A stretch of 64,000 nt of DNA, taken from positions 3,819 to 67,818 of the forward strand of contig CAIQCK010000103.1 of assembly GCA_903870275.1 (NCBI GenBank). Reading direction: 5' to 3'. The notes under the pieces were generated by a model that saw only the letters and a program-made list of their open reading frames with translations, was not told the origin of the DNA and made no database searches. Source of the stretch: an uncultured bacterium (GTDB lineage: Bacteria; Verrucomicrobiota; Verrucomicrobiia; CAIQCK01). Position numbers and translations under genes: made by a program. Of the stretch, positions 1,444-57,369 are shown in pieces; position 1 is the first letter of the stretch; every line of letters begins with the position of its first letter.

Positions 1444-3777
1444 CTATTTGCGAACCGAAATCAGCGCAGGTGGCACCAGGTTTTTCAGCCCGATCAGCGA
1501 GAAAACGTAGAGCGCGGCGGCGATCACCAGCAGCCATTGGTAGCCAACCACCAGCGAGAGGTATTCGAGCAGTCCGCCCAGCACCGCGCCCGCAATGTTC
1601 GCGCCGAACGCCAGTTCGGGCGACTTCGAGTTCCGGAACGAGCAGGCGAAGATGACGCCGGCGAAAAGAATCGGCAGACACATGACCACCGCGGACTTGG
1701 CCACTCGCAGCGCGAAGGTGTCCGCCAGAAGCCAGTCGAGTGGGATGCAGAGGTTGACGGCAAGGGCGGCGGCGAGTCCCGCGTAGTAGGGCCACATGCG
1801 TTGCGGCCGCGCCAGCAGGACGTACAGATTCGCCGCCAGAATCATCGCGAGAATCGCCGCGAAGACGATGGAGTTGACCAGCCAGGTGGAACCGAACAAC
1901 TGCGCCGCCTGGGTCACGCTTTTTGTCTCGATCAACATAAAGCCGGCTCCGAGGAAGAAGAAGTGCGGATTGACGCCGCGCAGCGTGCGGACCGGCGCGA
2001 AGACGGCCAGCAAGCCGAGCGAGAGGCCAAGCATCAGCGCCAGCCCCCGCCAGTTGTGCGCCGGGATGCGCGGCTCGCGCAAATAGAGGAACGGCCAATC
2101 GTCCTCGGGCAGTTTCCAGGTTTGCGACTCGATCAGGCTGGCCGATTTGAGGCGCACCGCCTCGCCCTCCGGCGCCGGTCTGCCTGCCAAATCGGCGGTG
2201 GTTGCCGTGAAGCCGTTGAGGGTTCGGTGGAAGTTCGGGTCCTGGTTGAAGAACAGAAAACTTCCGTGCTCGCTGAATTGTTTGCGAATCGGGCTGAGCG
2301 CATCGAGACCGCCGCCCAGCAGCATCGCCATGTGCATTCCCTCGCTCTCACTGTCGCGAATCTCGTCGCGCGGCGGCAGTGAAAGCAGCAGCGGCTCGCA
2401 ACCGAAGCTGTCGCGCATCATCCGGTGCAACCGGGCCACAATCCAGCCCTGGCGGTAGAAGTTGTAGGCGGCAAACACGCCACCGGGCTTCAAGTGCCGC
2501 GCGACGTCCGCGAACGCCTGCCGGGTGAACAGGAAATTTTCCAACCGGATGCTGGAAAAGCTGGAGTGCAACGTCAGCGAGTCCACGAGCGCATAGACGA
2601 TCAGGTCGTATTTCCGGTCGGTCGTCCGCAGGAAGGAGCGGCCGTCGTCAATAATCAACCGCACGCGCGGGTCGTCGTAAGGCCGGTTTGGGTGATGCCG
2701 CCGGCCAAGCCGCGCAATGGCCGGATCAATCTCCACCGCGTCAATGTGCTCCGCCCCTTGCGCGAGTCCGTGGGCCACGTCGTTGCCCGACCCGGCGCCG
2801 ATCACCAGCACGTCTCGAATCGGCGGCAATCCGGCGTCACGCCTCAGCAGATACGGCAACGCGTAGGCCGTCGCCGCCTTGGTGCGGTCCACCATGCGCT
2901 GGTGCGACAAATCATTAACCGAGATGTCCTGCGTCTCCGGCGCGTAACGGATGGAATAATAAGGCGACCAGTGAAACACACACACCGTCCCGCGCCAGCC
3001 CGTCACGCCGATGGCCACCAGCACAACGGCCAGCAGCGCCGTGTTCGAGACGGTGAGCCGCCCCGACGCCCGCAGAAAATAAATCACGCACGCCATGCCG
3101 ACGGCGAACCAGGCCACGGGCGGCAGTTCGCAATACGCCATCGCCCCAAACGCCACGATGCCCGCCAGGCTGCCCGCGATGTTGATGGTGTAGGATTGGA
3201 TGCGATTCTCGATCGCGGCGAGCTTGTTTCCCAAAATCTGGCCGAGCGCCACGAACCACAACGCAATCAGCGTGAAAAAAACGCCCATCAGCAACTCGAC
3301 CGGGATGACCAGTTTCGCCGTCGCCGCTCCCGCGAGTTCGGTGCCGAAGTAAACGAGTTGCGGGCTGCGCTGGTTGCCGACATCCACGCCCGCCAGCCAC
3401 GCGCTGCCCACGGCTGCATAGACCGCCAGCGCCGCCGCGCAGGTCACGCCCATCAGCGTCGGCAGATATGGCAGCACTTTCCACCGGCCGTCGCACGCCA
3501 GACAGCCGACCGACATCCCGACGAACGCCGCCAGCAGCACCGTGTTGGTGAAGAACGTCAGCGAAAAAACGTAGGCGGGAAACCACCGGATCGCGGCCAG
3601 TTCCAAAAACAGGATGGCGAAGCTGATCAGAAACAAATCGAACTTCGGGCGCGCCGCCGCCGGCGCCGGCGATGGCCGTCCCCGCGCCGCGCGCTGGGCC
3701 GCCAGCCACGCCCCCAAGCCGATCATCGCACCGCCCACCAGCGCAAAACACCAAAACGCGTCGCTGTCAAAATCCAT
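1444..3777 (-). CDS. polytopic membrane protein with central spermidine synthase-like (polyamine aminopropyltransferase) domain
   Basis: 777 aa. Multiple hydrophobic segments at both ends. Central SAM-binding Rossmann motif VLVIGAGSGNDV...IDAVEIDPAI...RLIIDDGRSFLR...YDLIVYALVDS typical of SpeE-family. Membrane-fused SpeE-like proteins are common in Planctomycetes/Verrucomicrobia. Confidence 0.75.
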   Translation of the reverse strand: MDFDSDAFWCFALVGGAMIGLGAWLAAQRAARGRPSPAPAAARPKFDLFLISFAILFLELAAIRWFPAYVFSLTFFTNTVLLAAFVGMSVGCLACDGRWKVLPYLPTLMGVTCAAALAVYAAVGSAWLAGVDVGNQRSPQLVYFGTELAGAATAKLVIPVELLMGVFFTLIALWFVALGQILGNKLAAIENRIQSYTINIAGSLAGIVAFGAMAYCELPPVAWFAVGMACVIYFLRASGRLTVSNTALLAVVLVAIGVTGWRGTVCVFHWSPYYSIRYAPETQDISVNDLSHQRMVDRTKAATAYALPYLLRRDAGLPPIRDVLVIGAGSGNDVAHGLAQGAEHIDAVEIDPAIARLGRRHHPNRPYDDPRVRLIIDDGRSFLRTTDRKYDLIVYALVDSLTLHSSFSSIRLENFLFTRQAFADVARHLKPGGVFAAYNFYRQGWIVARLHRMMRDSFGCEPLLLSLPPRDEIRDSESEGMHMAMLLGGGLDALSPIRKQFSEHGSFLFFNQDPNFHRTLNGFTATTADLAGRPAPEGEAVRLKSASLIESQTWKLPEDDWPFLYLREPRIPAHNWRGLALMLGLSLGLLAVFAPVRTLRGVNPHFFFLGAGFMLIETKSVTQAAQLFGSTWLVNSIVFAAILAMILAANLYVLLARPQRMWPYYAGLAAALAVNLCIPLDWLLADTFALRVAKSAVVMCLPILFAGVIFACSFRNSKSPELAFGANIAGAVLGGLLEYLSLVVGYQWLLVIAAALYVFSLIGLKNLVPPALISVRK

Positions 3778-3844: not shown

Positions 3845-4375
3845 ATGGAGATTTTCGCCATCGGCCACTCGACCCAACCGCTGGAGGATTTCGTGGCGCT
3901 GCTCAAGGCGCATGGGATCGAAACCCTCGCCGACATTCGCACGGTGCCCAAGTCGCGCTACAACCCGCAGTTCAACCAGGACCGGCTCGCCCTCGAGTTG
4001 CCGCGCGTCGGCATCCGCTACGTTCACCTCAAGAACCTCGGCGGCCTGCGCCACGCCCGGCCCGACTCGCAAAACCTCGGCTGGGAGAACCCGGGCTTCC
4101 GCGGCTACGCCGACTACATGCAGACGGAGCCGTTTGCCGCGGGGTTGAACGAACTCATCGAGATGGGCGCGCAAAGCCGGACCTCCATCATGTGCGCCGA
4201 GGGCAACCCGGCGCGCTGCCATCGCAATCTGCTGGCGGACGCGCTCACCGTGCGCGGCGTGACCGTGCTGCACATCTCCAGCCCCAAAAGCGCCCATCCC
4301 CACAAGCTCACGCCGTTTGCCTGCGTCGAAGGCACGCGCGTGACCTATCCGGGTTCGCAACCCAATCTGCTCTGA
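3845..4375 (+). CDS. DUF488 family protein
   Basis: 176 aa. Sequence MEIFAIGHSTQPLEDFVALLKAHGIETLADIRTVPKSRYNPQFNQD...MCAEGNPARCHR matches the conserved DUF488 signature (IGHS...DVR..P.S). ATG at 3845. Confidence 0.75.
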   Translation: MEIFAIGHSTQPLEDFVALLKAHGIETLADIRTVPKSRYNPQFNQDRLALELPRVGIRYVHLKNLGGLRHARPDSQNLGWENPGFRGYADYMQTEPFAAGLNELIEMGAQSRTSIMCAEGNPARCHRNLLADALTVRGVTVLHISSPKSAHPHKLTPFACVEGTRVTYPGSQPNLL

Positions 4376-4395
4376 CTTCGTCCATGTGTTTTTTA

Positions 4396-4490
4396 GTCGC
4401 CGACGTGTAGCCACCGACGCGTAGCCGCCGACGTGAGGAGGCGGAAAGGTCGTGACTGAAAAACATTCGCCTCCTTACGTCGGCGGCTAC
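4396..4490. repeat. REP-like palindromic element in mutS leader (imperfect 23-bp inverted repeat plus partial direct copy)
   Basis: Arms GTAGCCGCCGACGTGAGGAGGCG (4421-4443) and CGCCTCCTTACGTCGGCGGCTAC (4468-4490) are reverse complements (1 mismatch) around a 24-nt loop. A partial direct copy gtgtagccaccgacgc precedes at 4406-4421. A near-identical arm recurs at 27010-27033. Confidence 0.5.
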
Positions 4491-4574
4491 GGTTCGTCCT
4501 CGTCTCGTGCTACGCGTGAAAAAACGGGGCCAGTCAAAAATCCGTGTTCCATCCGTGTTCCATCCGTGGCTAAT

Positions 4575-7142
4575 ATGCCGCCAGTGACAACGACACCTGA
4601 TCCCAGCCTGACGCCCATGATGCAGCAGTATCGCCGCATCAAGCGGGAAATCCCCGCCGACGCGCTGCTCTTGTTCCGGCTGGGCGATTTTTACGAGATG
4701 TTTTTCGACGACGCAAAGTCCGGCGCGCAGACGCTCAACCTCACCCTCACCCACCGCAACCACGTCCCGATGTGCGGCATCCCGCATCACGCCGCCGAGG
4801 GCTACATCAGCCGCCTCCTGCGCGCGGGCCGCAAGGTCGCCATCTGCGACCAGATGGAGGAGCCGCGCCCCGGCCAGCTCGTGAAACGCGAGATTTCCCA
4901 AATCCTCAGTCCCGGCGCGCACTTCGACGGCCGGATGCTCGACGCCTCCCGCAACAACTACCTCGCCGCGCTCAGCACCGACGGCAAACGCTTCGGCTTC
5001 GCCCTCGTGGACCTGACCACCGGCGACTTCAGGCTGACGGAGCTGGACTCCGCCGAATTGCTCGCGCACGAACTGACGCGCACGCGGCCCGCGGAGGTCG
5101 TCGCGCCGGCGGCCAAGGTCGAGGAGTTGTCGAAGCTGCTGACCGATTCCCGCGTGATGATCACCGGCCACGAGGACTGGGTGTTCGAAAACCAGACGGC
5201 GTTCTTCACGCTGCGCGACCATTTCAAGACGCAATCGCTCGACGGCTTCGGCTGCGCGGGGATGACGCTCGGCATCGGCGCGGGCGGCGCGGCGCTCTAC
5301 TATCTCCAGAACGTCCTCCGCCGAAACGTCAGCCACATCCGCCGCCTGCAAGTGTATCAAACCGCTGAGTTCCTGGTGCTCGACTCGATCTCGCAGCGGA
5401 ACCTCGAACTGGTCGAGCCGCTCCGCCCCGACGCGCCAAAGAACTCCACGCTCTTCGCCGCGCTCAACCGCACCGCCACAGCGATGGGCGCGCGGCTGTT
5501 GCGTGAGTGGATCACGCATCCGTTGCGCAACGCCGAGGCCATCCGCGCGCGGCAAAAGGTGGTCTTCGAGTTCCACGACATGACCGACGTGCTCGCGGAC
5601 TTTCGCGACCAGCTCAGCCTCGTGCGCGACCTGGAGCGAACGCTCGCCCGGCTCACCGCCGGCAGCGGCAACGCTCGCGACCTGCTCGGCCTGAAGGAAT
5701 CGCTCGCCGCCCTGCCCCTCTTGAAGAGCATCGTCGAGCCGCTCGCCTCGCCGCTGGCGCTGACGTTGCGCGGCTCCATCATCGAACTGCCCGACACGTG
5801 CGACCTTGTCCAACGCGCCATCACCGACGAGCCGCCGTTTACGCTCAGCGACGGCGGCGTCATCCGCGAAGGCTTCAGCCCGGAGCTGGACGAAATCCGC
5901 CGCGCGTCCAAGGAGGGCAAGGAGTGGATCGCCAAGCTCCAGCAGGACGAGATCGAGCGCACCGGCATTTCGTCGCTGAAGGTCCGCTACAACTCCGTCT
6001 TCGGCTACTTCATCGAGGTCACCAAGTCCAACCTCGCCAAGGTTCCCGACAACTACACCCGCAAACAGACCGTCGCCACCGGCGAGCGGTTCATCACGCC
6101 GGAGTTGAAGGAGGTCGAGGGCAAAATCCTCGGCGCGGACGAGCGCGCGGCGAAGCTGGAGGTGGAGTTGTTCCATCAGGTCCGCGCGAAGGTGCTGGAG
6201 CAGACCGCCGCCATCCAACAGACCGCCTCGGCCGTCGCCCACCTCGACGTGCTGGCCGGCTTCGCCGAACTGGCGCGGCACCAGAACTACCATTGTCCGG
6301 AGGTCAACGAGGAGGCGCGCATCGAGATCCGCGACGGCCGCCATCCGGTCGTCGAGCAGCTCATGACCGAAGAGCGGTTCGTGCCCAACGACACCGTCAT
6401 GAACGGCTCCGAGGCGCGCGTGCTGGTCATCACCGGCCCGAACATGGCCGGCAAGAGCACCTACATCCGGCAGGTGGCGCTCTTGGTGCTCATGGCGCAG
6501 ATCGGCTCGTGGATTCCCGCTGCCAAGGCCACCGTCGGCATCGTGGACCGCATCTTCACCCGCGTCGGCGCCAGCGACGACCTCGTGCGCGGCCAGAGCA
6601 CGTTCATGGTGGAGATGAACGAGACCGCCAACATCCTCAACAACGCCACCGCCAAGAGCCTCGTCATCCTCGACGAGATCGGCCGCGGCACCAGCACGTT
6701 CGACGGCCTCTCCATCGCGTGGTCGGTCGCCGAGCACCTGCACAACGAGGTCAAGGCCAAGACGCTCTTCGCCACGCACTATCACGAGCTGACCGAACTG
6801 GCCCGCACCTGTTCCGCCGTCAAGAACTACAACGTCGCCGTCCGCGAGTGGAGCGACCAGATCATCTTCATCCGCAAGATCGTCGAGGGCGGCACCGACA
6901 AGAGCTACGGCATCCACGTCGCCCGCCTCGCCGGCCTCCCCCGCCCCGTCATCGAGCGCGCCAAGGAAATCCTCCGCAACCTCGAGGAGAGCGAACTGAC
7001 CCCCGAAGGCCAGCCCAAGATCGCCCAGCACGAGCACGGCCGGGGGAAAGCCGGAACGCGAAAGGCGAAAGGCGGAACCAAGCCCGCCAAAGTCAGCGAG
7101 CCGCCCCCGCAGATGTTTTTGTTCGGGGATAAGGTGAAATGA
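4575..7142 (+). CDS. mutS: DNA mismatch repair protein MutS
   Basis: Conserved N-terminal mismatch-binding region (TPMMQQYRRIKRE...GDFYEMFFDDA), Walker A GPNMAGKSTYIRQVAL, and STF.VEM / DE.GRGTST / TH(Y)HEL motifs. Start set at ATG 4575 (MPPVTTTP...); the upstream part of the track ORF covers the palindromic repeat. Confidence 0.95.
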   Translation: MPPVTTTPDPSLTPMMQQYRRIKREIPADALLLFRLGDFYEMFFDDAKSGAQTLNLTLTHRNHVPMCGIPHHAAEGYISRLLRAGRKVAICDQMEEPRPGQLVKREISQILSPGAHFDGRMLDASRNNYLAALSTDGKRFGFALVDLTTGDFRLTELDSAELLAHELTRTRPAEVVAPAAKVEELSKLLTDSRVMITGHEDWVFENQTAFFTLRDHFKTQSLDGFGCAGMTLGIGAGGAALYYLQNVLRRNVSHIRRLQVYQTAEFLVLDSISQRNLELVEPLRPDAPKNSTLFAALNRTATAMGARLLREWITHPLRNAEAIRARQKVVFEFHDMTDVLADFRDQLSLVRDLERTLARLTAGSGNARDLLGLKESLAALPLLKSIVEPLASPLALTLRGSIIELPDTCDLVQRAITDEPPFTLSDGGVIREGFSPELDEIRRASKEGKEWIAKLQQDEIERTGISSLKVRYNSVFGYFIEVTKSNLAKVPDNYTRKQTVATGERFITPELKEVEGKILGADERAAKLEVELFHQVRAKVLEQTAAIQQTASAVAHLDVLAGFAELARHQNYHCPEVNEEARIEIRDGRHPVVEQLMTEERFVPNDTVMNGSEARVLVITGPNMAGKSTYIRQVALLVLMAQIGSWIPAAKATVGIVDRIFTRVGASDDLVRGQSTFMVEMNETANILNNATAKSLVILDEIGRGTSTFDGLSIAWSVAEHLHNEVKAKTLFATHYHELTELARTCSAVKNYNVAVREWSDQIIFIRKIVEGGTDKSYGIHVARLAGLPRPVIERAKEILRNLEESELTPEGQPKIAQHEHGRGKAGTRKAKGGTKPAKVSEPPPQMFLFGDKVK

Positions 7143-8236
7143 ATGCCGTAGGCAAGATTGGAATGTTCTGCCTTCTCTTGGCGGCAGTGGTTGTTTCTTT
7201 CCTTACGGGCTGTGCAATTGCGCGAGTGCCATATGACGTGACGGTGAAGTATGCAGAGGTTCGTGGTAACATGATTAAGGAGGAGTTCCACAAACAAGTC
7301 CCCTCAGAAATCAAGACATTTGAAGACCTAACCAAGCTGCTGGACGCCTACGACAAGTTCAAAGGCGTAAAGCAGATGAGCTTCGAAGAAAGCGTCTGGA
7401 CCGATGAGGCTCGCGAGGCCATTCGCGGTTTGGAATTCAATCATAACACTTCAGCAGTTTTCTTGGTCGAGATAGTTAGGCGAGAGTTCGATTGCGAAGA
7501 CTTTTGCAAATTCGCCGCGGAACACAGAAACGCAACTGTGGAGTTACTTGATCGCCTTGCAGATCACCCCAGAGAATCTGTTTGGCTTCAAGTCACCAAG
7601 AATTCGAACGTGACCACAGAACTGTTGCGAAAGATATATTTCAACCCAAAGTCTAATTTCTATGTTCGCGGTTACGCAGCTCACAATCCAAAGGCTCCGC
7701 CCGAAATCGTCACCGCTTTTCTTCAGGAAGCGATGTCGAACACGGATCCAAGAAAGAGATGCTGGGCTAGCGGTTTTCCACGCGCGTCGTTATCCTTAGG
7801 AGATTATTCAAAATTGTCGAAAGACCTCGACAAACGCGTTAGAGATGCGCTGGCTAGAAATCCATCAGCGCCAATCTCCATGCTGGAGTCACTTTCGGAA
7901 GATGCTGACCCATATGTGAGCCGGCACGCCCGCGAAACAATTCAAAAGGTGAAGACAAATCACTTCACAAAGAAGGCTCAAGATTTTGTTTGCAGCAACA
8001 AAACGGTTCTTAATCTGATCGGCTCGGTGCCAGAATTTCACCAATTCGATACCAGTTCCTCTAAAGAGCCGTGCCCCGACGGCGGATTTGCGGGACACAC
8101 CTACTTCAGAGTAGAGACACCATCAGCGCACAAAGGCTGTTTGATCAAGATTAGTTGGCGATCCAAAGATTGCGAAGACGACTTCCAACCATTGGAAATT
8201 CAGGCAAACAGCAAAGTGATTTGGAAGACGCAATAA
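7139..8236 (+). CDS. lipoprotein with HEAT-like repeats (hypothetical); low-GC gene
   Basis: Signal peptide with lipobox (LLLAAVVVSFLTGC). About 5 degenerate HEAT/PBS-lyase-like helical repeats in the central region. ATG overlaps the mutS stop (ATGA). GC content visibly lower (roughly 45-48%) than flanking DNA. Confidence 0.65.
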   Translation: MNAVGKIGMFCLLLAAVVVSFLTGCAIARVPYDVTVKYAEVRGNMIKEEFHKQVPSEIKTFEDLTKLLDAYDKFKGVKQMSFEESVWTDEAREAIRGLEFNHNTSAVFLVEIVRREFDCEDFCKFAAEHRNATVELLDRLADHPRESVWLQVTKNSNVTTELLRKIYFNPKSNFYVRGYAAHNPKAPPEIVTAFLQEAMSNTDPRKRCWASGFPRASLSLGDYSKLSKDLDKRVRDALARNPSAPISMLESLSEDADPYVSRHARETIQKVKTNHFTKKAQDFVCSNKTVLNLIGSVPEFHQFDTSSSKEPCPDGGFAGHTYFRVETPSAHKGCLIKISWRSKDCEDDFQPLEIQANSKVIWKTQ

Positions 8237-8259: not shown

Positions 8260-9405
8260 ATGCTTATGAAACGAATCACCGCCACCACGGTCGCGCTTTG
8301 GTTCCTGACCTCCGTGCTGTCAGCCTCGGACGGGACGGCGCCGACCGATGTGCCGCAGATTCCGCTGTGCATGATCGGCGACAGCATTACCTGGGCGGGC
8401 GAAGGCGATTACTGGCGGCAGGATCTCCTGGAGCAGCTTCCCGCGCTGGCTTTTGTCGGCACGCACACGGCCAAGCTCGGCTACAGCCACGCGGGCGAAG
8501 GCGGCAACGGCACGCGGGCCGTGCTCGCGCGCCTCGGCGATATCCCGGATTGTCCATACTACTCGCTGCACATCGGCACCAACGACAACAACCTCAAGGA
8601 CGCGTCCGCCATCGAGTCGCACGCCGCCGCCACCGCGGACCGCATCGTCGCCATCGTGCAGGGGCTGTTGAAGAAGCCGTCGGTGCGAAAGGTGTTCCTG
8701 TGCAGCATTCTCCCCTGCCAGACGGACAACCCGTTGCGGGACCGGACCAACGCCGCGACCAACGTGGTGTTGCGACAGAAGATGGCGGCGTTTCCCAAGG
8801 ACAAGGTGGTTTGGGTGGAACTGGAGAAGCCCGTCCGCGCCATCGAGAACTGGGGTCCGATGATCAAGCTGCACCCGACGCAGGAAGGATACAAGGTGAT
8901 GGGGAAGCTGCTGGCCGATGCCATCGCCGCGGCCCTCGGCGTGCAGGATCGCGCCGCCGTGCCGAAACCGCGGCCCGGTTGCGGCGTGCGGGTGGAGAAT
9001 CTTTGGGACGGCGGCGGCAACGGTCGCACGCGTGCGCCGATCATCGCCGGCTGGTATACGGCGTCGTTCGACGTGGTGCGCGCGGCCGGGCCGAAGGCCA
9101 CGGTGACGATCCGCGGCGAACTTCCGCCCGCAAAGGACCCCAAAACCGTGCAGCACGCATTCAACCAGTCATTCCCCGTGGCCTCCGGGGACGCCGGCAA
9201 GCGCGTCACGGTCAACTTCTTCACGGAACACGAGGGCTACAAATACACGCGCTCGCCGTTGGCGTTGACGGCCTCCGGATGCGAGATCACGAAAATCCTG
9301 GTCGAGAAGCGGCGGCCATCCGGCAAAGCCTCCACCTACGGCCAAGGCTCGTATGTGGACACCGCGACCGCACCCCTGCCCGGCGAACTTGTGGAACGAC
9401 CGTAA
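8260..9405 (+). CDS. SGNH/GDSL-family hydrolase with C-terminal beta-rich domain
   Basis: Signal peptide (MKRITATTVALWFLTSVLSA), block I GDS motif (CMIGDSITWAG), GTND block III-like (HIGTNDN). Start at ATG 8260; ATG 8266 is an alternative. Confidence 0.7.
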   Translation: MLMKRITATTVALWFLTSVLSASDGTAPTDVPQIPLCMIGDSITWAGEGDYWRQDLLEQLPALAFVGTHTAKLGYSHAGEGGNGTRAVLARLGDIPDCPYYSLHIGTNDNNLKDASAIESHAAATADRIVAIVQGLLKKPSVRKVFLCSILPCQTDNPLRDRTNAATNVVLRQKMAAFPKDKVVWVELEKPVRAIENWGPMIKLHPTQEGYKVMGKLLADAIAAALGVQDRAAVPKPRPGCGVRVENLWDGGGNGRTRAPIIAGWYTASFDVVRAAGPKATVTIRGELPPAKDPKTVQHAFNQSFPVASGDAGKRVTVNFFTEHEGYKYTRSPLALTASGCEITKILVEKRRPSGKASTYGQGSYVDTATAPLPGELVERP

Positions 9406-9504
9406 ACGCTGGCGACAGATTTACCCGGCGCTGATAGAAATCTCTGCAAAAGCCGTTGTCCACACTGTAGCGGCGGTCCCATGAAAATAATAGCAAGTTT
9501 CTCT

Positions 9505-9535
9505 TGACATATAGAGAAAGTATCTATATGTTCTT
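9505..9535 (+). promoter_or_regulatory. candidate sigma70-like promoter (TTGACA-17-TATGTT) overlapping a perfect 8-bp inverted repeat CATATAGA-N7-TCTATATG
   Basis: AT-rich patch in GC-rich intergenic DNA. TTGACA at 9505-9510; inverted repeat at 9508-9515 and 9523-9530. No convincing downstream CDS: ORF 9542-10021 is Pro/Gly-rich low complexity. Confidence 0.3.
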
Positions 9536-10059
9536 CCCGCCATGAATTGGACCGGCACGCGGGCGCAGACCCTCCGGCCGGGAGCCGGCGGCGGCAACCC
9601 GGAGGCCGGCCCGAGCCATCCGCGGATGGTTGCGGGCACCGGCCTCGTGCCGCCATCCAAGACCCGGCCCGGCCCCACAAGCCGGATGGTGACGGGCCAG
9701 ACGCCGCCGGCATGGACCACGGACGATCTGGCGGCCACGCCGCCTCTTGATGGCCCCAAGCGCCAGAACCGCCCCCAACGCGGACGGCTGCGGCTGGTGG
9801 CGGGACGATCATCCTCCCCATCCATCATCTGGGTCAATTTTTCAAAACGAACCCATATGATGGCCCCGGTCCAACCTGGAAAACATCGTTTTCCCGAAGA
9901 AAACCCGGGGTTCGATGCCCGAGGGCCGGGGAATTCAAAAGGTGTTTTTACGAAACGAAGCCAAATGAAAGGAGGCTCATGTCAGGGAATGATACGGTTC
10001 GGAGTTGGCCTTGCCCGGTAGCGGCGGTAGCGGCAAAGCGTCTCCAACCCGCTCGCTCG

Positions 10060-10161
10060 GTCAAGGTTCGGTCAAAGCCAGTCAAAGTGAAAACGCCCAA
10101 AAATAATTTGGCCTAATCCGGGTTGATCCGGCTGCATCCGACCTGATCCGACTCAATCCAA
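10060..10161. repeat. phased direct-repeat array: GTCAA(A/G)G x3, then ATCC(G/A) x5 at exact 10-bp spacing
   Basis: GTCAAGG/GTCAAAG/GTCAAAG at about 10060, 10070, 10081. ATCCG at 10116, 10126, 10136, 10146 and ATCCA at 10157, i.e. one-helical-turn periodicity. About 150 bp upstream of the CDS starting at 10302. Confidence 0.45.
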
Positions 10162-10301
10162 CAGAAACCGACCCAGTGAAACCCATGAAACATTGCAAAC
10201 GCACGATGGCTGTGGCGGCGGAACAAAACCAAATCATGCCACCGAAGGGCAAACATTTCACCGAGACTTTCTGGCTGGTTGCCATTAGGATGGCGCCCGA
10301 C

Positions 10302-10817
10302 ATGAAACGGCTTCTCATTCTGCTCCTGTTCGCCGCTGCCGTGTCCGTGGGCGCGGTGGAGGTGGATGTCACGCTCAAGAACGGCAAGAAGGTGACGGGC
10401 GGCGTGCTGGTTGATAACGACCGCGAGATCATCATCCTCGTGCAGGCGTCCAACGGCGTTTACCGGCAGACGATCAAGAAAGCCGACGTTGCTGGGGTCA
10501 AAGAGCACGCCGCGCCGAAAGCCGGGCCGCCCGGCCCCGCGGACGTGGCACGGCTGCAAAAGAGCATCAAGGCCGCCGAGGAGGACGTGCGCCGGCGCGA
10601 GGCGGAGATCCCCATTGCCCAGAAGGCGCTGGATGATTTCTACGGCAGCCACCCCGACGCCAAGGCGGCAACGCTGGACAGGGAGCGGAAGTTGCGTGCG
10701 CGACTGGCGACGACTCGAACGCAAGTGGATATCGCCCGCTCCAAACTCAACGCACTCACCTTGGACCTCGGAGCGATGAGCCGCCAGTTGACCGAGCCGC
10801 CGCCGCAGGCGAAGTGA
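10302..10817 (+). CDS. hypothetical secreted protein with C-terminal coiled coil
   Basis: Start at ATG 10302 gives a signal peptide (MKRLLILLLFAAAVSVGA). Beta-rich N-domain then a charged helical region (ARLQKSIKAAEEDVRRREAEIPIAQKALDDF). Confidence 0.5.
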   Translation: MKRLLILLLFAAAVSVGAVEVDVTLKNGKKVTGGVLVDNDREIIILVQASNGVYRQTIKKADVAGVKEHAAPKAGPPGPADVARLQKSIKAAEEDVRRREAEIPIAQKALDDFYGSHPDAKAATLDRERKLRARLATTRTQVDIARSKLNALTLDLGAMSRQLTEPPPQAK

Positions 10818-10839
10818 GGAAGCGGTGAGGCGAACCCTC

Positions 10840-11583
10840 TCAACCCTGCCGCCCTGCGGGAACTGTTCCCTTCAGAAGAACGCTGGTTCCCAGCGGCAAA
10901 GGAAGCCCCTTGTCCACCTGCAACAACGCGCGAAGGACGGCACTGGTGAACGGGTGGGTTTTGCTGTCGCCCGAATCGGCAAGCGGGTAGGCACGGCGCA
11001 AAATTCTGCTGTAGAGCAGGCAAACCGGGATCAGGGTGAATCCAAAATACCGCACTCGATCAACCACGACGGCACGGCCGACCGTTTGGCGCAACGAGCG
11101 GATGGAGTAGCGCCGGTAGTGCCCGAGGGATTCATCGTGAAAACCGAACAGCCATTGGCCCGCCGGCACGGTGAGCATCAAGAGGCCGCCGGGGCGCGCG
11201 CACGCGATCAATTTCTCCACGGCTTTCACATCGTCCCGGATATGCTCGATCACGTCGGTGGCGATCACGCAATCGTAGGGCTGGCTGACCTGAAGGTCTT
11301 CGATGGAGCAAACCTTGAACGTGCAACGGGGAATCGCCAGTGCCCCCGCCGTCTGCCTTGCCAGCTCGATATACTCGCGCGAAGGATCAACGCCCATGAC
11401 ATCGTGACCGGCTTCGGCCAGCAGGAACGACAGATCCCCCGAACCGCATCCCGCGTTCAAAATCCTCAGCGGCTTCGGCTCTGCGCCCAGCCATTCCAGG
11501 AGGATGCGATACTTCGTGTGCGCATACAAATCCCGCGAGCGCGCCAGCAAGTCTTGATACTGATAAGCGTTAAAGCCGTTCAT
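10840..11583 (-). CDS. class I SAM-dependent methyltransferase
   Basis: Motif I LNAGCGSGDLS, post-I acidic residue (GHDVMGVD), motif II-III (DCVIATDVIEHI...ARPGGLLMLTVP). Confidence 0.8.
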   Translation of the reverse strand: MNGFNAYQYQDLLARSRDLYAHTKYRILLEWLGAEPKPLRILNAGCGSGDLSFLLAEAGHDVMGVDPSREYIELARQTAGALAIPRCTFKVCSIEDLQVSQPYDCVIATDVIEHIRDDVKAVEKLIACARPGGLLMLTVPAGQWLFGFHDESLGHYRRYSIRSLRQTVGRAVVVDRVRYFGFTLIPVCLLYSRILRRAYPLADSGDSKTHPFTSAVLRALLQVDKGLPLPLGTSVLLKGTVPAGRQG

Positions 11584-26843: not shown

Positions 26844-26888
26844 TCGCTGTAGCGGCGGTCTCCAACCACCGAGCTGTTCATTATCAAC
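26844..26888. repeat. short repeat (half copy of hairpin element CTGTAGCGGCGGTCTCC...TTCAT(T/C)ATCAAC)
   Basis: Matches 27058-27105 (left arm plus loop of the hairpin element below). A third copy of the core CTGTAGCGGCGGTC is at 9465-9478. Confidence 0.5.
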
Positions 26889-27000: not shown

Positions 27001-27057
27001 CAGACGCCTGTAGCCGCCGACGTAAGGAGGCGGTCATGTTCGCATCCTCGATCTTTC

Positions 27058-27130
27058 CGCTGTAGCGGCGGTCTCCGACCGCCGAAATGTTCATCATCAA
27101 CAACCGGCGGTCAGAGACCGCCGCTACAGC
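27058..27130. repeat. palindromic hairpin element (17-bp perfect stem GCTGTAGCGGCGGTCTC / GAGACCGCCGCTACAGC, extendable to about 27 bp)
   Basis: Arms at 27059-27075 and 27114-27130. Preceded by a REP-like arm CTGTAGCCGCCGACGTAAGGAGGCGG (27008-27033) shared with the mutS leader element. Confidence 0.5.
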
Positions 27131-27199
27131 CACCGCTTGTCCGCGTGACTTCCCCCGCCCCTTCTGGTAGAAACGCCGCCAAGGAGAGCGGCAGAGACG

Positions 27200-29605
27200 A
27201 TGAAGAAGTGGCTGAAGATTCTGTCTGTGGTATTGCTCGGGGCTCTAATGGCAACGGGCGCGTTCTTCGTCGCCAAACCGGCAAGGATGCCGGTGTTCCA
27301 ATCAACTTCTGTTTTCCGGCATTATCACACTTTGTGCGTGCCTTACCGCCGACCACCGGCGCTTGATGCGGCCGAAGCAACCCCCATATTGGAACACGCC
27401 ATCCAGCGAATCCGCCAGCGCCTCTTTAAAGCCCGCAATCGTTTGCCGGCACTGTCGGAAATAGACAAAGCAACAATCAAGGGATGTGACTTCACATATC
27501 GGAAAGGAGACGTCTCCCGCGATGAGACAGGCAAGCGGGTTTTTGATCCGCCGGATTCCTGCTACTTGTCCCTGCATGCCGAATATCCGTTCTGGGAATC
27601 AATGATGCTGTCAGTTGTTCCAAAGGAGTATTCAGTGTATGGGGATTGTTTTGCTGTCTACGCATCGGTAACTACGGAAACCGGTCAGTCCGAGATTTAC
27701 AAAATAATTCAGCAGGAAATGGACCGTGCAGTTGAAGAACTCCAAACGGCGGTCCGGTCCAAAATGCTCAAGGCAGGGGAAGGAATCTTTCTGGCCGTCA
27801 GAACCAGCGACGCCGCAAAGGTGGAGCAGTTCCTGGCCCGCAAACCCGAGTTGGCCAATGCCAAAGACACCCATGGGCTTGCGCCGCTTCATTGGGCACA
27901 AGACACGCGCGTTGCGGAGTTGTTGCTGGCGAAGAAAGCCGATGTTACCGCCAAAGACAACTTCGGTCTCACGCCCCTGCACTGGGCGGTCTATAATGGC
28001 CGCTTCGAACTCGTAAAACTGCTCGTCGCCAACAGGGCCGACATCAACGCCAAAACCACCGATGGCTGGACTCCCACGGACCTCGCCGAGGAACTGTACG
28101 GTGAAGCCGGGAAAGCAACGTCTTTTCTTCTCCAGCACGGCGGAATTCCTGGCCTGCCCGACGCAAGATTGATGGTAGTTCTTAGATGGCTCGACAAAAC
28201 GCACTTGAAGCGAGCGCTGCAAATGAAACCTAATTTCGTTGCCCTGAAGGACGAACAGGGGCGCACCGCACTGCATCACGCAGTTTTATCTCGCAACAGA
28301 GAAGCGGTGGAACTGCTTTTGAACGCCGGCGCGGATCCCAACATCAAGGACAATTATGGAAACACGGCAATATTGACGCCAAATGTCATGGTTGATCCAA
28401 AACTGCTGGAACTGCTGCTGACTCACAAGGCCGACCTCAACGTCATGGACGAGAAAGGCCGGACGCCTCTCGACCGTGCACTACTGGATCATGCATCAGA
28501 AATCGTCGCTCTTCTTCGCAAATACGGCGCCCAGAGAGGAGTAGAACCCCTTCGCAATACCATAATGCAACAAGACATGGGCGAACTGAAAGTATTGCTG
28601 TCATCCCAAACGGTTGACGTCAATAAGAAGGACCGTTATGGCAGTTATCCCGTTCATCTTGCGGTGTTTTACAAAAACATCGAAATGCTGAAGCTGTTGC
28701 TGGATCACAACGCTGATCCCAATGTCAGGGACAAAGAAGGTTATACATTGTTCCAAGTGTTCCTCGGATCCAAAGAAATGATGGCTTTGCTGATCGCCCA
28801 CGGAGCCGATGTTAACGCCAGAGACGGGTGGGGTGCCACGGCGCTTCATCATGCAGTCGGACTTATCAACAACAAGGAAGCCGTAGAGTTCCTCATTGCC
28901 AACAAGGCCGACGTCAACGCTGAAGACAAGAATGGCTGCACACCTTTGGATCGCGCATTTCGGCACAGCTCTAACCCGCATCACAGAATTGTGATTGATC
29001 TTCTTCGAGAGCACGGTGGCATATTCAAGAAATACCAGAAAGAAGCCAGCATCATGGAGTCACACCTCAAGAGACGGCAGTACATAATGGCTGGGATGCC
29101 TCTCTTTCCATACGGTTTAACAAACATAATTATTCGCCCGTTGCCGATAGTCCGCAAAAAAACATCGCTTACTCCTATTCAGGATATGGAGTTGCGGAAC
29201 ATGCCGGATGTGAAGGCCGCCAGCGAAGCACTGTCGGAAACTGGCAAAAAGTCTGCCAACGTGAGAAGAGCGACAATGTCCAAACTGGGATATCACATTG
29301 AGTCTCGCACTAATGGCACGTCGAATGTCGGGACAAGCGTATTCCGTGGGTGGTTTACTGCCGATGGGGAGCGGGTGACGACCAAGCAATTGACGGAATT
29401 CGACGATTTGCCGGACGTGAAGGCCAGTCGTGAAGCCACTGCACAAGCTGGCATGCTATACTGGGCAGTGAGGAGAGCAGCAACGACCACGCTTGTTAAT
29501 CAGACAGGTTATGGCACCAATCGCGCATCATCGGCGATTCAAGCACCGCCGGCGGGATCGGGCACGAATGGAGCGGTGCAGGTGAAGGGGAATGTGATGC
29601 GATGA
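27200..29605 (+). CDS. ankyrin-repeat protein with N-terminal signal peptide/TM and unknown N- and C-terminal domains (low-GC gene)
   Basis: 801 aa. About 10 or more ankyrin repeats (G.TPLHWA..NG....V.LLL..GAD.N). N-terminal hydrophobic segment (ILSVVLLGALMATGAFFVA). C-terminal region has an internal duplication (MPDVKAASEA / LPDVKASREA). GC visibly lower (about 50%). Confidence 0.85.
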   Translation: MKKWLKILSVVLLGALMATGAFFVAKPARMPVFQSTSVFRHYHTLCVPYRRPPALDAAEATPILEHAIQRIRQRLFKARNRLPALSEIDKATIKGCDFTYRKGDVSRDETGKRVFDPPDSCYLSLHAEYPFWESMMLSVVPKEYSVYGDCFAVYASVTTETGQSEIYKIIQQEMDRAVEELQTAVRSKMLKAGEGIFLAVRTSDAAKVEQFLARKPELANAKDTHGLAPLHWAQDTRVAELLLAKKADVTAKDNFGLTPLHWAVYNGRFELVKLLVANRADINAKTTDGWTPTDLAEELYGEAGKATSFLLQHGGIPGLPDARLMVVLRWLDKTHLKRALQMKPNFVALKDEQGRTALHHAVLSRNREAVELLLNAGADPNIKDNYGNTAILTPNVMVDPKLLELLLTHKADLNVMDEKGRTPLDRALLDHASEIVALLRKYGAQRGVEPLRNTIMQQDMGELKVLLSSQTVDVNKKDRYGSYPVHLAVFYKNIEMLKLLLDHNADPNVRDKEGYTLFQVFLGSKEMMALLIAHGADVNARDGWGATALHHAVGLINNKEAVEFLIANKADVNAEDKNGCTPLDRAFRHSSNPHHRIVIDLLREHGGIFKKYQKEASIMESHLKRRQYIMAGMPLFPYGLTNIIIRPLPIVRKKTSLTPIQDMELRNMPDVKAASEALSETGKKSANVRRATMSKLGYHIESRTNGTSNVGTSVFRGWFTADGERVTTKQLTEFDDLPDVKASREATAQAGMLYWAVRRAATTTLVNQTGYGTNRASSAIQAPPAGSGTNGAVQVKGNVMR

Positions 29606-31897: not shown

Positions 31898-31972
31898 TGG
31901 TGGGCGCTGTTGGGATTGAACCAACGACCCCTTGCGTGTGAAGCAAGTGCTCTCCCACTGAGCTAAGCGCCC
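31898..31972 (-). tRNA. tRNA-Val (anticodon CAC), CCA encoded
   Basis: Reverse complement GGGCGCTTAGCTCAGTGGGAGAGCACTTGCTTCACACGCAAGGGGTCGTTGGTTCAATCCCAACAGCGCCCACCA folds as a cloverleaf. Acceptor GGGCGCT/AGCGCCC, D-arm GCTC-AGTGGGA-GAGC, anticodon stem CTTGC/GCAAG with loop TTCACAC, T-arm GTTGG-TTCAATC-CCAAC. Confidence 0.85.
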
Positions 31973-55719: not shown

Positions 55720-57192
55720 TTATGGCGTCGGTTCGGGCGGATCTGGTTTCTTGGTCTTCGGCGCCGGCGACACGGGGGCGGACCCGACAGCAGGCTTGCG
55801 CAGTTTGTTCAGCGCCTCGGCGGCAAAGTGGCGCACGTCCCGATCTGTATCAATCAAGCAGGCGGTCAGTGGGTTGATGGCTCGCGTGTCCCCCAGCCTG
55901 CCCAGCGCCCAAGCGGCTTGGCAGCGGACCTGCTGATTCTTATCGTTCAAGCAAGCGATCAGCAGATCAACGGCTCGCTTGTCACCCAGCTTGCCCAACG
56001 CCCAAGCAGCTAGCCAGCGGACCTGCTGATTCTGGTCTTTCAAGCAAATGATCAGCGGCTCGACGGCTCGCTTGTCCCCCAGCTTGCCTAGGGACTCGGC
56101 AGAGTTACTGCGCACCGACCACGCTTCATCTTTCAGGCAGGCGATCAACGGTTCAACGGCCCGCACATCCCCCAAATCGCCCAACGCCGCGGCGGCAGGC
56201 CAAGACAGACGATTGTCCCGGTCTTGGTCCGTCAAGCAGGCGATCAGCGGCTCCAAAGCCCGCTTGTCCCCCACGTGGCCCAGCGCATGGGCGGCTATTC
56301 TGCGCACGACCCAATCCTGGTCTTTCAAGCAGGCGATCAACGGCTCGACGGCCCGTTCGTTCCCCGGTTTGCCCAGCGCCATGGCGGCATGCCAGCGCAT
56401 GACCTTGTCCTCATCCTTCAAACAGGCGATCAGATGCTCAACGGCTCGCACATCCTCCAGTTTGCCCAGGACCGAGATGGCGCCCCAGCGCATGTTCTCA
56501 TCTGGACCTTTCGAGCAGACAATGAGCGGCTCGACGACTGGCTTGCCCAGCTTGCCCAGCGCCTTGGCGGCGCCTGATCTCACACTCCGATCTTGATCTT
56601 TCAAACAGCCGATCAGCGGCTCGACGGCTGGTTTGCCCAACTTGCCCAGCGCCTCGGCGGTATGGTAGACTACATACAGTTCCTGATTCTTCATCAACTT
56701 CAAGCAGGCGATCAGCGGCTCGACGGCCCGCGCGTCTCCGAGTTTGCCCAGTGCCTCGGCGGCGACCCACCGCAGATTCTGATTCTGATCCTTCAAGCAA
56801 GCGATCAGAGGCTCAACGGCTTGTGCGTCTCCGAGTTTGCCCAACGCCTCGCCGGCGGCCCTGAACACCCTGTATTCTTGATCCTTCAGGCAGGCGATCA
56901 ACGGCTCAACTGCCCGCTTGTCCCCCAGTTTGCCCAGCGCCACAGCCGCACCCGCGCGCACACGCAAATCCGAATCCTTCAAGCAGGCGATCAACGGCCC
57001 GATGGCCCGCTTGTCGCCCAGGTCGCCCAGCGCATAAACCGCACTCTCGCGTCCAAAAAAGCCAAGCGGATCATTCAACTCGTTGATTCGTTCTTGAACG
57101 GTGTCGGTCGTTCCCACCGCCCCGGCCGCCGCAAGACTCATGCAAAGCGTTATTGAACGAATCAACGCCACGACAAAAGGCTTCACGTTCAT
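55720..57192 (-). CDS. HEAT-repeat (PBS-lyase type) protein, about 14 tandem repeats
   Basis: Signal peptide; repeat unit about 31 aa LGDKRAVEPLIACLKDQ...VR..AA.AL repeated throughout; 490 aa. Confidence 0.85.
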   Translation of the reverse strand: MNVKPFVVALIRSITLCMSLAAAGAVGTTDTVQERINELNDPLGFFGRESAVYALGDLGDKRAIGPLIACLKDSDLRVRAGAAVALGKLGDKRAVEPLIACLKDQEYRVFRAAGEALGKLGDAQAVEPLIACLKDQNQNLRWVAAEALGKLGDARAVEPLIACLKLMKNQELYVVYHTAEALGKLGKPAVEPLIGCLKDQDRSVRSGAAKALGKLGKPVVEPLIVCSKGPDENMRWGAISVLGKLEDVRAVEHLIACLKDEDKVMRWHAAMALGKPGNERAVEPLIACLKDQDWVVRRIAAHALGHVGDKRALEPLIACLTDQDRDNRLSWPAAAALGDLGDVRAVEPLIACLKDEAWSVRSNSAESLGKLGDKRAVEPLIICLKDQNQQVRWLAAWALGKLGDKRAVDLLIACLNDKNQQVRCQAAWALGRLGDTRAINPLTACLIDTDRDVRHFAAEALNKLRKPAVGSAPVSPAPKTKKPDPPEPTP

Positions 57193-57369
57193 ATGGCTGC
57201 CTTCATTTTATAACGAACGGTTGCCGATCCGCTTCACCGGTGCAGCCGCCGTTGTTGAGTCCAAGCATTGTGTGTCCGGAGCGCCCGCATGAACTTGTTG
57301 TCGTGTATGCGGCCATCTGTGTTCATCCGGGAATCTGTCAATGATCAGGAGTTGTGACCCCACGCGAAG

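Follow-up and report, generated by a model that had tools for sequence, protein, structure and literature searches.

The question raised by this locus is why a set of short repeats in helical phase lies in the DNA upstream of a small secreted-protein gene of an uncultured bacterium of the Verrucomicrobiota. The stretch analyzed here, hereafter the window, is 64,000 nt of contig CAIQCK010000103.1 (positions 3,819 to 67,818), and the repeats form two successive arrays, one of GTCAA(A/G)G units (G-array) and one of ATCCG(A/G)C units (A-array). The original prediction, made from the letters of the window, took them for iterons or for a cooperative regulator-binding array. Comparison with related loci (L numbers) and protein clusters (P numbers) leads to a different answer: the arrays are a conserved module of a ∼780-bp non-coding, multi-copy element, probably an RNA gene, that a few related uncultured freshwater Verrucomicrobia carry at several loci.

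Direct reading of the sequence placed ATCCG at 10116, 10126, 10136, and 10146, as predicted, and ATCCA at 10156, one base before the predicted 10157; the intervals between the five ATCC copies are all exactly 10 bp, and a sixth, degenerate A-array unit (AACCG) follows at 10166. The three GTCAA(A/G)G motifs with 10-11-bp spacing and the GAAAC repeats behind the A-array had also been read correctly: GTCAAGG starts at 10060 and GTCAAAG at 10071 and 10081 (spacings of 11 and then 10), and GAAAC occurs at 10164, 10178, and 10187. The pattern ATCC-N6-ATCC-N6-ATCC with at most one mismatch gave four overlapping matches here and none elsewhere in the window, compared with 0.19 expected in shuffled sequences, and 0/100 shuffles reached four. 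When all 4-mers were scanned at periods of 7-15 as a look-elsewhere correction, the ATCC array was the sole run of ≥5 units that the window contains, and none of 100 dinucleotide-preserving shuffles contained any such run. The A-array is therefore non-random. The GTCAARG pair alone is not significant within the window; the G-array is convincing because it is conserved in other copies of the element. Tandem Repeats Finder called a weak period-10 array only (score 35), which indicates a degenerate array and not a fresh duplication.

Each unit consists of a heptamer core and a short spacer, and the two parts have diverged at very different rates. In three paralogous copies the G-array cores deviate from the consensus at 3/91 positions and the spacers at 19/39 (p = 2e-9), and the A-array cores at 15/161 and the spacers at 33/69 (p = 3e-10); the contrast is large even though the heptamer cores were chosen post hoc and the units lack independence. 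The second G-unit (GTCAAAGCCA) and the last G-unit (GTCAAAGTGA) are identical in the three paralogues. All intervals are 10 or 11 bp in the three paralogous copies and in two orthologues, so that the description of the repeats as helically phased and non-random holds well beyond the window. Since the cores are near-invariant while the spacers vary, and are kept in diverged paralogues, the arrays are best regarded as old, selectively maintained recognition motifs.

We concluded from these alignments that the arrays are the product of more than recent slippage alone. A neutral variable-number tandem repeat with a 10-bp unit, produced by replication slippage in functionless intergenic DNA, would explain why the unit number varies among close relatives (3, 3, 4, and ∼5, the last in P0025, read from its translation), why the first unit has a 1-bp indel, and why the region contains a patchwork of other repeats (REP-like hairpins, and in locus L032 an 18-bp duplication around a 350-nt insert). 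We consider this explanation very unlikely. The arrays are retained unit by unit in paralogues that are only ∼63% identical over the 5′ domain of the element, and variation is concentrated in the 3-nt spacers, whereas neutral decay would spread evenly; gene conversion would homogenize the spacers as well. The G-unit number is three in the window and L006, four in L026, and five in L028 and L032.

Next, we examined what the arrays belong to. Relatives were sought with the translation of a 159-aa open reading frame (ORF) upstream of the arrays as the probe, and the array content of P0030, P0025, and P0006 was inferred from translations. Element copies were found in L023/L024, at a contig end adjoining an ADH gene, in L025, in L028-L031, flanked by a Pel9A-like gene and a convergent 605-aa gene, and in L032-L034, 3′ of clpX; on long contigs the host genes near the copies are mutS (window), clpX (L032), and kdpA (L028). 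Several copies come from the same samples as the contigs of the window organism. The loci examined have no neighboring gene in common. The copies are 60-85% identical overall, and there is one in 64 kb: neither BLAST nor nhmmer with a profile of the core detected a second copy in the window, where only a 14-nt REP-like repeat was found. Within the window and the 34 loci scanned, the motif pairs were confined to copies of the element, always on the promoter strand and 3′ of the promoter of the element.

Both arrays, the AT-rich linker between them, and the tail behind them can be aligned among the window, L028, and L032, and L028 and L032 have two A-arrays each. In L028, whose 5′ core is ∼63% identical to that of the window, the core is followed by an extra ATCCGA x4 array, five G-units (GTCAACC-TTG, GTCAAAG-CCA, GTCAAAG-TGG, GTCAAAG-TGG, and GTCAAAG-TGA), an AT-rich stretch, three copies of GATCCGACCC plus AAATCCGGGT, and the tail. 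This tail reads GAAAGCC..ATGAAACCC..ATTGCAATTGCACGATGACTG, and with its part GTATGAAACCC..ATTGCAATTGCACGATGACTG it aligns unit by unit with that of the window (10177-10212); the counterpart in L032, which aligns with the same positions, is CGATGAAACCCGTTGAACATTGCAAATGCACGAT. The convergent gene of L028 ends ∼40 bp past the element, and there is no co-oriented gene downstream of the arrays. In L032 five GTCAAAG units, an AT-rich stretch, and the ATCCGAC arrays are set between the 5′ and 3′ core halves, at the site that forms the loop of the predicted hairpin GGGACG-AUCAU-CCUCCC in the window. The linker in L028 and L032 (TTTCGACTATTATTTTTTAC) has kept its AT-rich composition at a sequence identity of just 39%. 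Further family members carry array peptide signatures in three frames (SKSVK../SD.IR.NPT), which were detected in at least 13 of ∼38 translations, either after box K2 or before box K1 of the core (Table 1).

A promoter-like site with 10/12 sigma-70-like matches precedes the core and is kept in L006, L026, L023, L025, L028, and L032, with a weaker -10 hexamer in L028. The folding energy of the core is lower than that of shuffled sequences (z = -2.82). In the 5′ domain the RNAalifold structure is matched by pairing in 88.9% of alignment cells, compared with 28-51% for slid partners; nine pairs are changed on both sides, among them three consecutive fully compensated pairs in helix 3. The covariation score of this domain was reached by 0/500 shuffles, a result that rests on ∼3 independent lineages and on a structure taken from the same alignment. 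The 3′ domain is conserved chiefly in primary sequence, with little covariation, and a further near-invariant block of the element body spans 9767-9895. No stable structure is predicted for the tail (z = +0.92). By hand and by promoter scan, neither the AT-rich linker nor the minus strand of the G-array yielded an acceptable -35/-10 pair. The sequence GCGTCTCC, found in the poorly conserved spacer between core and G-array, also precedes the first array in L028.

Rfam 15 gave no match at the gathering threshold for the element in the window and six related loci, and only the tRNA at 31901-31972 passes in the window; at E ≤10 the element (window and L028) gave chance-level matches only (rseX at 23 bits, mir-934, and Ms_AS-1). 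ARAGORN found no tRNA or tmRNA genes in five related loci. The resemblance of CGATCC/GAATCC to a tRNA T-arm was discarded, as there is no supporting stem. A search of the literature on the heptamer and on non-coding RNA motifs of Verrucomicrobia returned nothing relevant. The element family is unmatched to any described family.

The public gene callers treat part of the element as coding: they place a 159-aa ORF at 9542-10021 and stretch the downstream gene to 210 aa, mis-starting it by 39 codons. The region could accordingly encode a protein, either as the 159-aa ORF or as an N-terminal extension of a 210/213-aa ORF, and the repeats would then be a peptide repeat. Besides the annotation of both ORFs, this view can call on 31 representative "homologues" and on a conserved ATG straight after the promoter. 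We give it next to no chance. Substitutions per codon position (8/15/9, 18/19/10, and 19/26/22 in three comparisons) show no third-position excess, by which the 159-aa ORF is judged to be non-coding; amino-acid identity is 84% at ∼93% nucleotide identity; reading frames shift between element copies; the ORF ends vary, with both in-frame TAGs of the window being GAG in L006; and the homologues of the real gene begin at 10302. At least 31 representative "hypothetical protein" clusters (P0023-P0061, counted among 1.84 billion proteins) are translations of this non-coding element, that is, spurious gene calls, with consequences for annotation, as the element currently stands as hypothetical proteins in public databases. 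P0047 (2350 aa), which was matched by the profile search, was set aside as an unrelated repeat protein.

Table 1. Coordinates of the element, its arrays, and the insertion site in the window.
Feature	Position	Strand	Description
Left junction	9412..9440	+	ancestral GCGACA (-35-like), 17 bp, TAGAAA; collinear with insertion-free relatives through GGCGAC (9411-9416)
Half copy of REP-like palindromic repeat	9465..9478	+	CTGTAGCGGCGGTC; L006 and L007 hold the complete hairpin there
Element promoter	9485..9538	+	AT-rich upstream patch, TTGACA 9504-9509, 17-bp spacer, TATGTT 9527-9532; 10/12 sigma-70-like matches
Structured non-coding core	9539..9972	+	5′ domain 9539-9812, 3′ domain 9813-9972
Box K1	9838-9863	+	TTTTTCAAAACGAACCCATATGATGG, near-invariant
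Box K2	9944-9968	+	GTTTTTACGAAACGAAGCCAAATGA, near-invariant
Spacer	9973..10059	+	poorly conserved (42% identity to L028); includes CGGTAGCGG x2 (10016-10033) and GCGTCTCC
G-array	10060..10090	+	units GTCAAGG-TTCG, GTCAAAG-CCA, GTCAAAG-TGA; heptamer core and 3-4-nt spacer
AT-rich linker	10091..10113	+	AAACGCCCAAAAATAATTTGGCC, between G- and A-array
A-array	10114..10175	+	six 10-nt units, core ATCCG(A/G)C; ATCC at 10116/10126/10136/10146/10156, degenerate AACC at 10166
Conserved tail	10177..10212	+	GTGAAACCCATGAAACATTGCAAACGCACGATGGCTG, holds GAAAC repeats; aligned unit by unit with L028 and L032
Degenerate third K-box	10220..10238	+	GGAACAAAACCAAATCATG; from repeat-family search of the window
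Ancestral promoter-like element of downstream gene	10263..10291	+	GAGACT, 17 bp, TAGGAT, 10 nt before ATG
Small secreted-protein gene	10302..10817	+	171 aa, signal peptide MKRLLILLLFAAAVSVGA (MKRLL...); outside the element; all 20 homologues start at this Met

With the spurious ORF removed, the distance from the lipase stop at 9405 to the true ATG at 10302 is 896 bp, and the 900-bp gene-free region of the original prediction was right in substance. Contigs of the same organism are 100% identical in this region, and L006/L007 and L026/L027 have the entire segment at ∼93% identity; it is absent from all relatives outside the window/L006/L026 lineage. In L008/L009 a lipase end 92% identical to that of the window is followed by the gene start after 30-40 bp, and the spacer before the gene is likewise short in L010-L022. 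The relatives without the insertion carry a promoter-like GGCGAC(T/A)-N17-TAG(A/G)AT ∼10 nt 5′ of the ATG; L008, L010, and L017 read ...CCGTAAACG(T/C)TGGCGAC..., and then the ATG within 30-40 bp. The window retains GGCGAC at 9411-9416 and GAGAC-TTTCTG...TAGGAT at 10263-10291, the latter collinear with GGCGACTTTCTG...TAGAATG...ATG of L008, L011, L012, L021, and L022. Since GGCGAC and this promoter-like sequence flank 9417-10267 and the spacers of the relatives are short, ∼850 bp were inserted into that promoter region. We concluded, by this comparison of homologous loci, that 9417-10267 is an insertion carrying one element copy in this lineage.

On the right, the element and the insertion both end at ∼10258-10267, as homology to L028 fades past ∼10258; the L026 contig stops at the match of 10266, one base short of the junction. 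Inspection by eye and a repeat search revealed no terminal inverted repeats and no inverted heptamer copies at the left end, and the evidence for a 5-bp duplication at the two junctions (GCGAC/GAGAC) is too weak for a call. Identity to L008 is 92% over the lipase end (8812-9416) and just 69% over 10298-11000 (secreted-protein gene and methyltransferase), a drop by which a breakpoint of recombination or replacement coincides exactly with the site of insertion. All homologues of the downstream protein come from metagenome-assembled genomes of Verrucomicrobia. The promoter-like motif of the secreted-protein gene, conserved in the 160 nt upstream of the gene in L008-L022, ends only ∼10 nt before its ATG, which suggests a leaderless mRNA or one with a very short leader; the promoter of the element likewise has a conserved ATG within ∼10 nt downstream.

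An operator or activator array specific to the small secreted-protein gene was the regulatory role implied at first, and the layout of the window agrees with it: the arrays lie ∼110-240 bp upstream of the promoter-like element of the gene and are co-oriented with it. The distribution of the segment makes this role highly unlikely. The arrays are missing upstream of every orthologue outside the window/L006/L026 lineage, the ancestral promoter of the gene is still present downstream of the insertion, and elsewhere the arrays face a convergent gene (L028) or lie inside the core (L032). Absence from orthologous intergenic regions had been named beforehand as evidence against the repeats as such, and it was indeed observed; it is outweighed by their conservation in paralogous copies. 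A phased repeat beside a gene can thus belong to an inserted repeat element and not to the regulation of the gene itself.

As to what the arrays do within the element, we tentatively favor the possibility that they form a transcribed multivalent binding platform of a new non-coding RNA. The strong sigma-70-type promoter would drive a transcript with the ∼430-nt structured core, and the arrays would be part of the same transcription unit, either as an unstructured 3′ extension (window and L028) or as an expansion of a predicted hairpin loop of the core (L032). With three to five GUCAAAG motifs and four to six of the sequence AUCCGAC, set apart by unconstrained 3-nt spacers, one RNA molecule would hold multiple copies or subunits of a factor that recognizes these sequences; such an RNA might serve as a sponge, as a scaffold, or as a loading site, comparable to CsrB/RsmZ and to the substrates of TRAP or Rho. 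We favor an RNA because the promoter is conserved, the core is folded and covarying, the tail is unstructured, and the arrays are on the promoter strand 3′ of the promoter; in addition, the array module of L032 sits at a hairpin-loop site, and the arrays of L028 precede no co-oriented gene.

Among the closest parallels are the sponge RNAs CsrB, RsmY, and RsmZ. Like them, the element is a non-coding gene with its own promoter-like site conserved in all copies, and diverged copies occur at several loci, some from the same samples, so that there are probably several per genome. The many short conserved motifs with free spacers and variable motif number are also shared with these RNAs, and more loosely with the target RNAs of TRAP and HutP. 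The motifs themselves differ: GGA in hairpin loops in the Csr/Rsm RNAs, GUCAAAG and AUCCGAC here, with CGGAU on the opposite strand only. CsrA-type GGA motifs were rejected as the primary explanation of the arrays, as they occur only on the non-promoter strand. The element also differs in that its motifs lie in a predicted unstructured tail with a strict 10-11-nt period and are joined to a ∼430-nt structured core. We know of no CsrB-like principle with different motifs in Verrucomicrobia.

Several observations weigh against an RNA platform. Transcription of the region, the RNA as the relevant molecule, and the existence of a binder are all things that we infer, and no candidate binding protein was identified. 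The covariation draws on few lineages, as stated above. No intrinsic terminator was found on the plus strand 3′ of the core or tail. The strict 10/11-nt spacing and the AT-rich linker suit a protein that binds one face of the DNA, and an RNA platform needs neither; the spacing is explained as well by an origin in a 10-nt duplication. L023 and L025 are core-only copies, which shows that the arrays are dispensable for the role of the core. Finally, the mosaic layouts could reflect nested insertion of an independent small repeat.

The lack of an intrinsic terminator is in line with a narrower variant of the RNA platform, in which the tail is a rut-like Rho-loading region that ends the non-coding RNA. 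The A-array is rich in C over G (C/G 1.8; 35% C, 19% G), the tail overall has a C/G of 1.3 and is unstructured, and five to six periodic UCC motifs provide YC dinucleotides at a 10-nt period that fits the six primary binding clefts of Rho. This variant seems improbable to us: rut sites are normally not conserved as a 7-nt motif, the G-array has no excess of C (C/G 0.67), and the arrays of L032 precede the 3′ core, so that termination at them would cut the RNA short.

A binding site at the DNA level is a stronger competitor, although we judge it unlikely as well. An oligomerizing protein would coat one helix face over the heptamers, with the AT-rich linker as a bendable or meltable segment; it might be a winged-helix response regulator, a ParR/ribbon-helix-helix-type protein, a Rep-like protein, or a recombinase binding to arm sites, and its role would lie in the maintenance or recombination of the element or in the local structure of the chromosome, with no special part for the secreted-protein gene. 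The 10- or 11-bp intervals in three paralogues and two orthologues are what such a protein would require, the AT-richness of the linker is kept though its sequence is not, and the conservation of the 3′ core by sequence rather than covariation also fits a DNA-level site and counts against an RNA.

The architecture has known counterparts. The 7-bp core with a 3-4-bp spacer and a 10-11-bp period resembles the Pho boxes bound by OmpR/PhoB-type regulators (7-bp repeat and 4-bp spacer), and the tandem units, three to six on one face of the helix, are reminiscent of ParR-parC of plasmid R1 (5+5 iterons of 11 bp), where the cores are likewise invariant. In contrast to the operators of OmpR/PhoB, which lie at about -30 to -110 of a promoter, the element arrays are not at a regulated promoter, and unlike either system the element has no cognate regulator or par genes nearby and looks transcribed. 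Indeed, no DNA-binding, rep, par, or recombinase gene is common to the neighborhoods retrieved. The arrays lie 250-700 bp 3′ of the sole conserved promoter, and inside the core in L032, positions that would be unusual for an operator or for a site bound at the element ends. The opposite end of the element showed no inverted copies, and the 64 kb hold no other occurrence of the motif, so that there is no sign of a regulon.

The same evidence separates the two halves of the original prediction. Selected, phased, recognition-like repeats were confirmed, and the assignment to iterons of a replicon or to an operator of the adjacent gene was not. Replicon iterons are also tandem direct repeats in helical phase, and the units here are shorter (7+3 bp versus the typical 17-22 bp). 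Phage and plasmid origin iterons (P4-type ori, and lambda ori in gene O) are phased repeats by an AT-rich stretch; here that stretch is the 23-nt linker, whose AT-rich composition is conserved and which is short for a putative unwinding element. Origins differ in having an initiator gene; no rep gene is adjacent, and the copies lie among ordinary cellular genes (GDSL lipase, mutS, methyltransferase, GT2, Pel9A-like, ADH, and clpX). A scan of IMG/VR gave 0 matches to the core K-boxes; scanned with the arrays, it gave a few unrelated phage tandem repeats and probable iterons. A DnaA box was also rejected: TGATCCGAC agrees with the TTATNCACA consensus at just 4 of the 8 positions that are specified, and this locus is not oriC.

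Phage contigs L042-L046 carry (A/T)TCCGACA arrays with a 10-11-bp period that are probably origin iterons. In L046 (3300-3520) the array immediately follows a 671-aa primase-helicase-like ORF and has inverted TGTCGGA copies close by, and in L043 (8950-9440) a ATCCGACAGC array lies inside a 340-aa replication-protein-like ORF. Their setting speaks for DNA binding as a use of such arrays; the shared heptamer follows from the search pattern and is no evidence of relatedness.

In its distribution the element resembles the intergenic repeats BOX A-Bn-C of pneumococci, BIME/REP, and ERIC: it is non-coding, intergenic, present at several unrelated loci, and modular with a variable module number, and it shows presence/absence between close relatives. 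It differs from them in having direct heptamer repeats and not palindromes, a conserved promoter, and a covarying core. Its copies are old and diverged (63-88% between segments) and kept at orthologous loci, and a high copy number was not seen.

Beyond the arrays themselves, it is conceivable, and rather doubtful at present, that the element represents a new bacterial family of long non-coding RNA (∼0.45-1.1 kb) of uncultured freshwater Verrucomicrobia, in which a structured core is joined to an optional (GUCAAAG)3-5/(AUCCGAC)4-6 module that titrates or assembles an oligomeric nucleic-acid-binding protein. Verrucomicrobia are abundant in lakes and soils, and to our knowledge very few regulatory RNAs have been described in them. 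If the arrays do form a multivalent platform on a new non-coding RNA, the element would be an entry point into post-transcriptional and RNA-protein regulation in this group, with natural variants at hand in which two defined 7-nt motifs are present in 0, 3, 4, or 5 units.

The element and its surroundings also hold other repeats. The 14-mer CTGTAGCGGCGGTC next to the left junction occurs in the window at 26847, 27060, and 27129(-) as well, as part of a REP-like family (CTGTAGCGGCGGTCT..GACCGCCG...CGGCGGTC..AGACCGCCGCTACAG) with members at 26845-26861 and 27058-27134 and a half copy at 9462-9478. The REP-like repeat is also found in L006 (1046-1078) and L007 (1-78); L007 has a full hairpin where the window keeps the left half only, and its contig begins inside the hairpin. 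The two copies of CGGTAGCGG in the spacer (10016-10033) resemble a half-site of this repeat.

Assemblies tend to break at or inside the element. The contigs of L004 and L005 end at window position 9946 in box K2, those of L026/L027 end at ∼10266, and contigs of 618-1003 nt (P0026, P0027, P0031, and P0032) hold little beyond the element. These breaks are consistent with several copies per genome or with presence/absence polymorphism between co-occurring strains.

L032 has acquired two further insertions. At 3352-3745 the ATCCGAC array is interrupted by an ∼350-nt insert that contains a long inverted repeat (GGTGGATCGCGTTCTCCGAACGCGAT.../...ATCGCGTTCGGAGAACGCGATCCACC) and is flanked by an 18-bp direct duplication of array sequence (ATCCGGCCCAATCCGACC); it may be an element of the miniature inverted-repeat transposable type that targets or duplicates array sequence. 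Directly past the 3′ end of the element, at 4010-4250 and 4254-6564, lies an IS21-like insertion sequence that encodes an IstA-like rve/Mu-transposase-C protein and an IstB-like ATPase. Its left end has four to five ∼22-bp repeats (ATTTCGG-N7-8-GTTACCA), and the L033 contig ends there.

Lastly, three stretches of the window have a lower G+C content (50-56% versus ∼62%), namely 7001-8000, 27001-29000, and 57001-62000, which may reflect horizontal acquisition. The first of these includes the gene at 7139-8236, which encodes a 365-aa lipoprotein-like protein with a faint LRV-repeat match.

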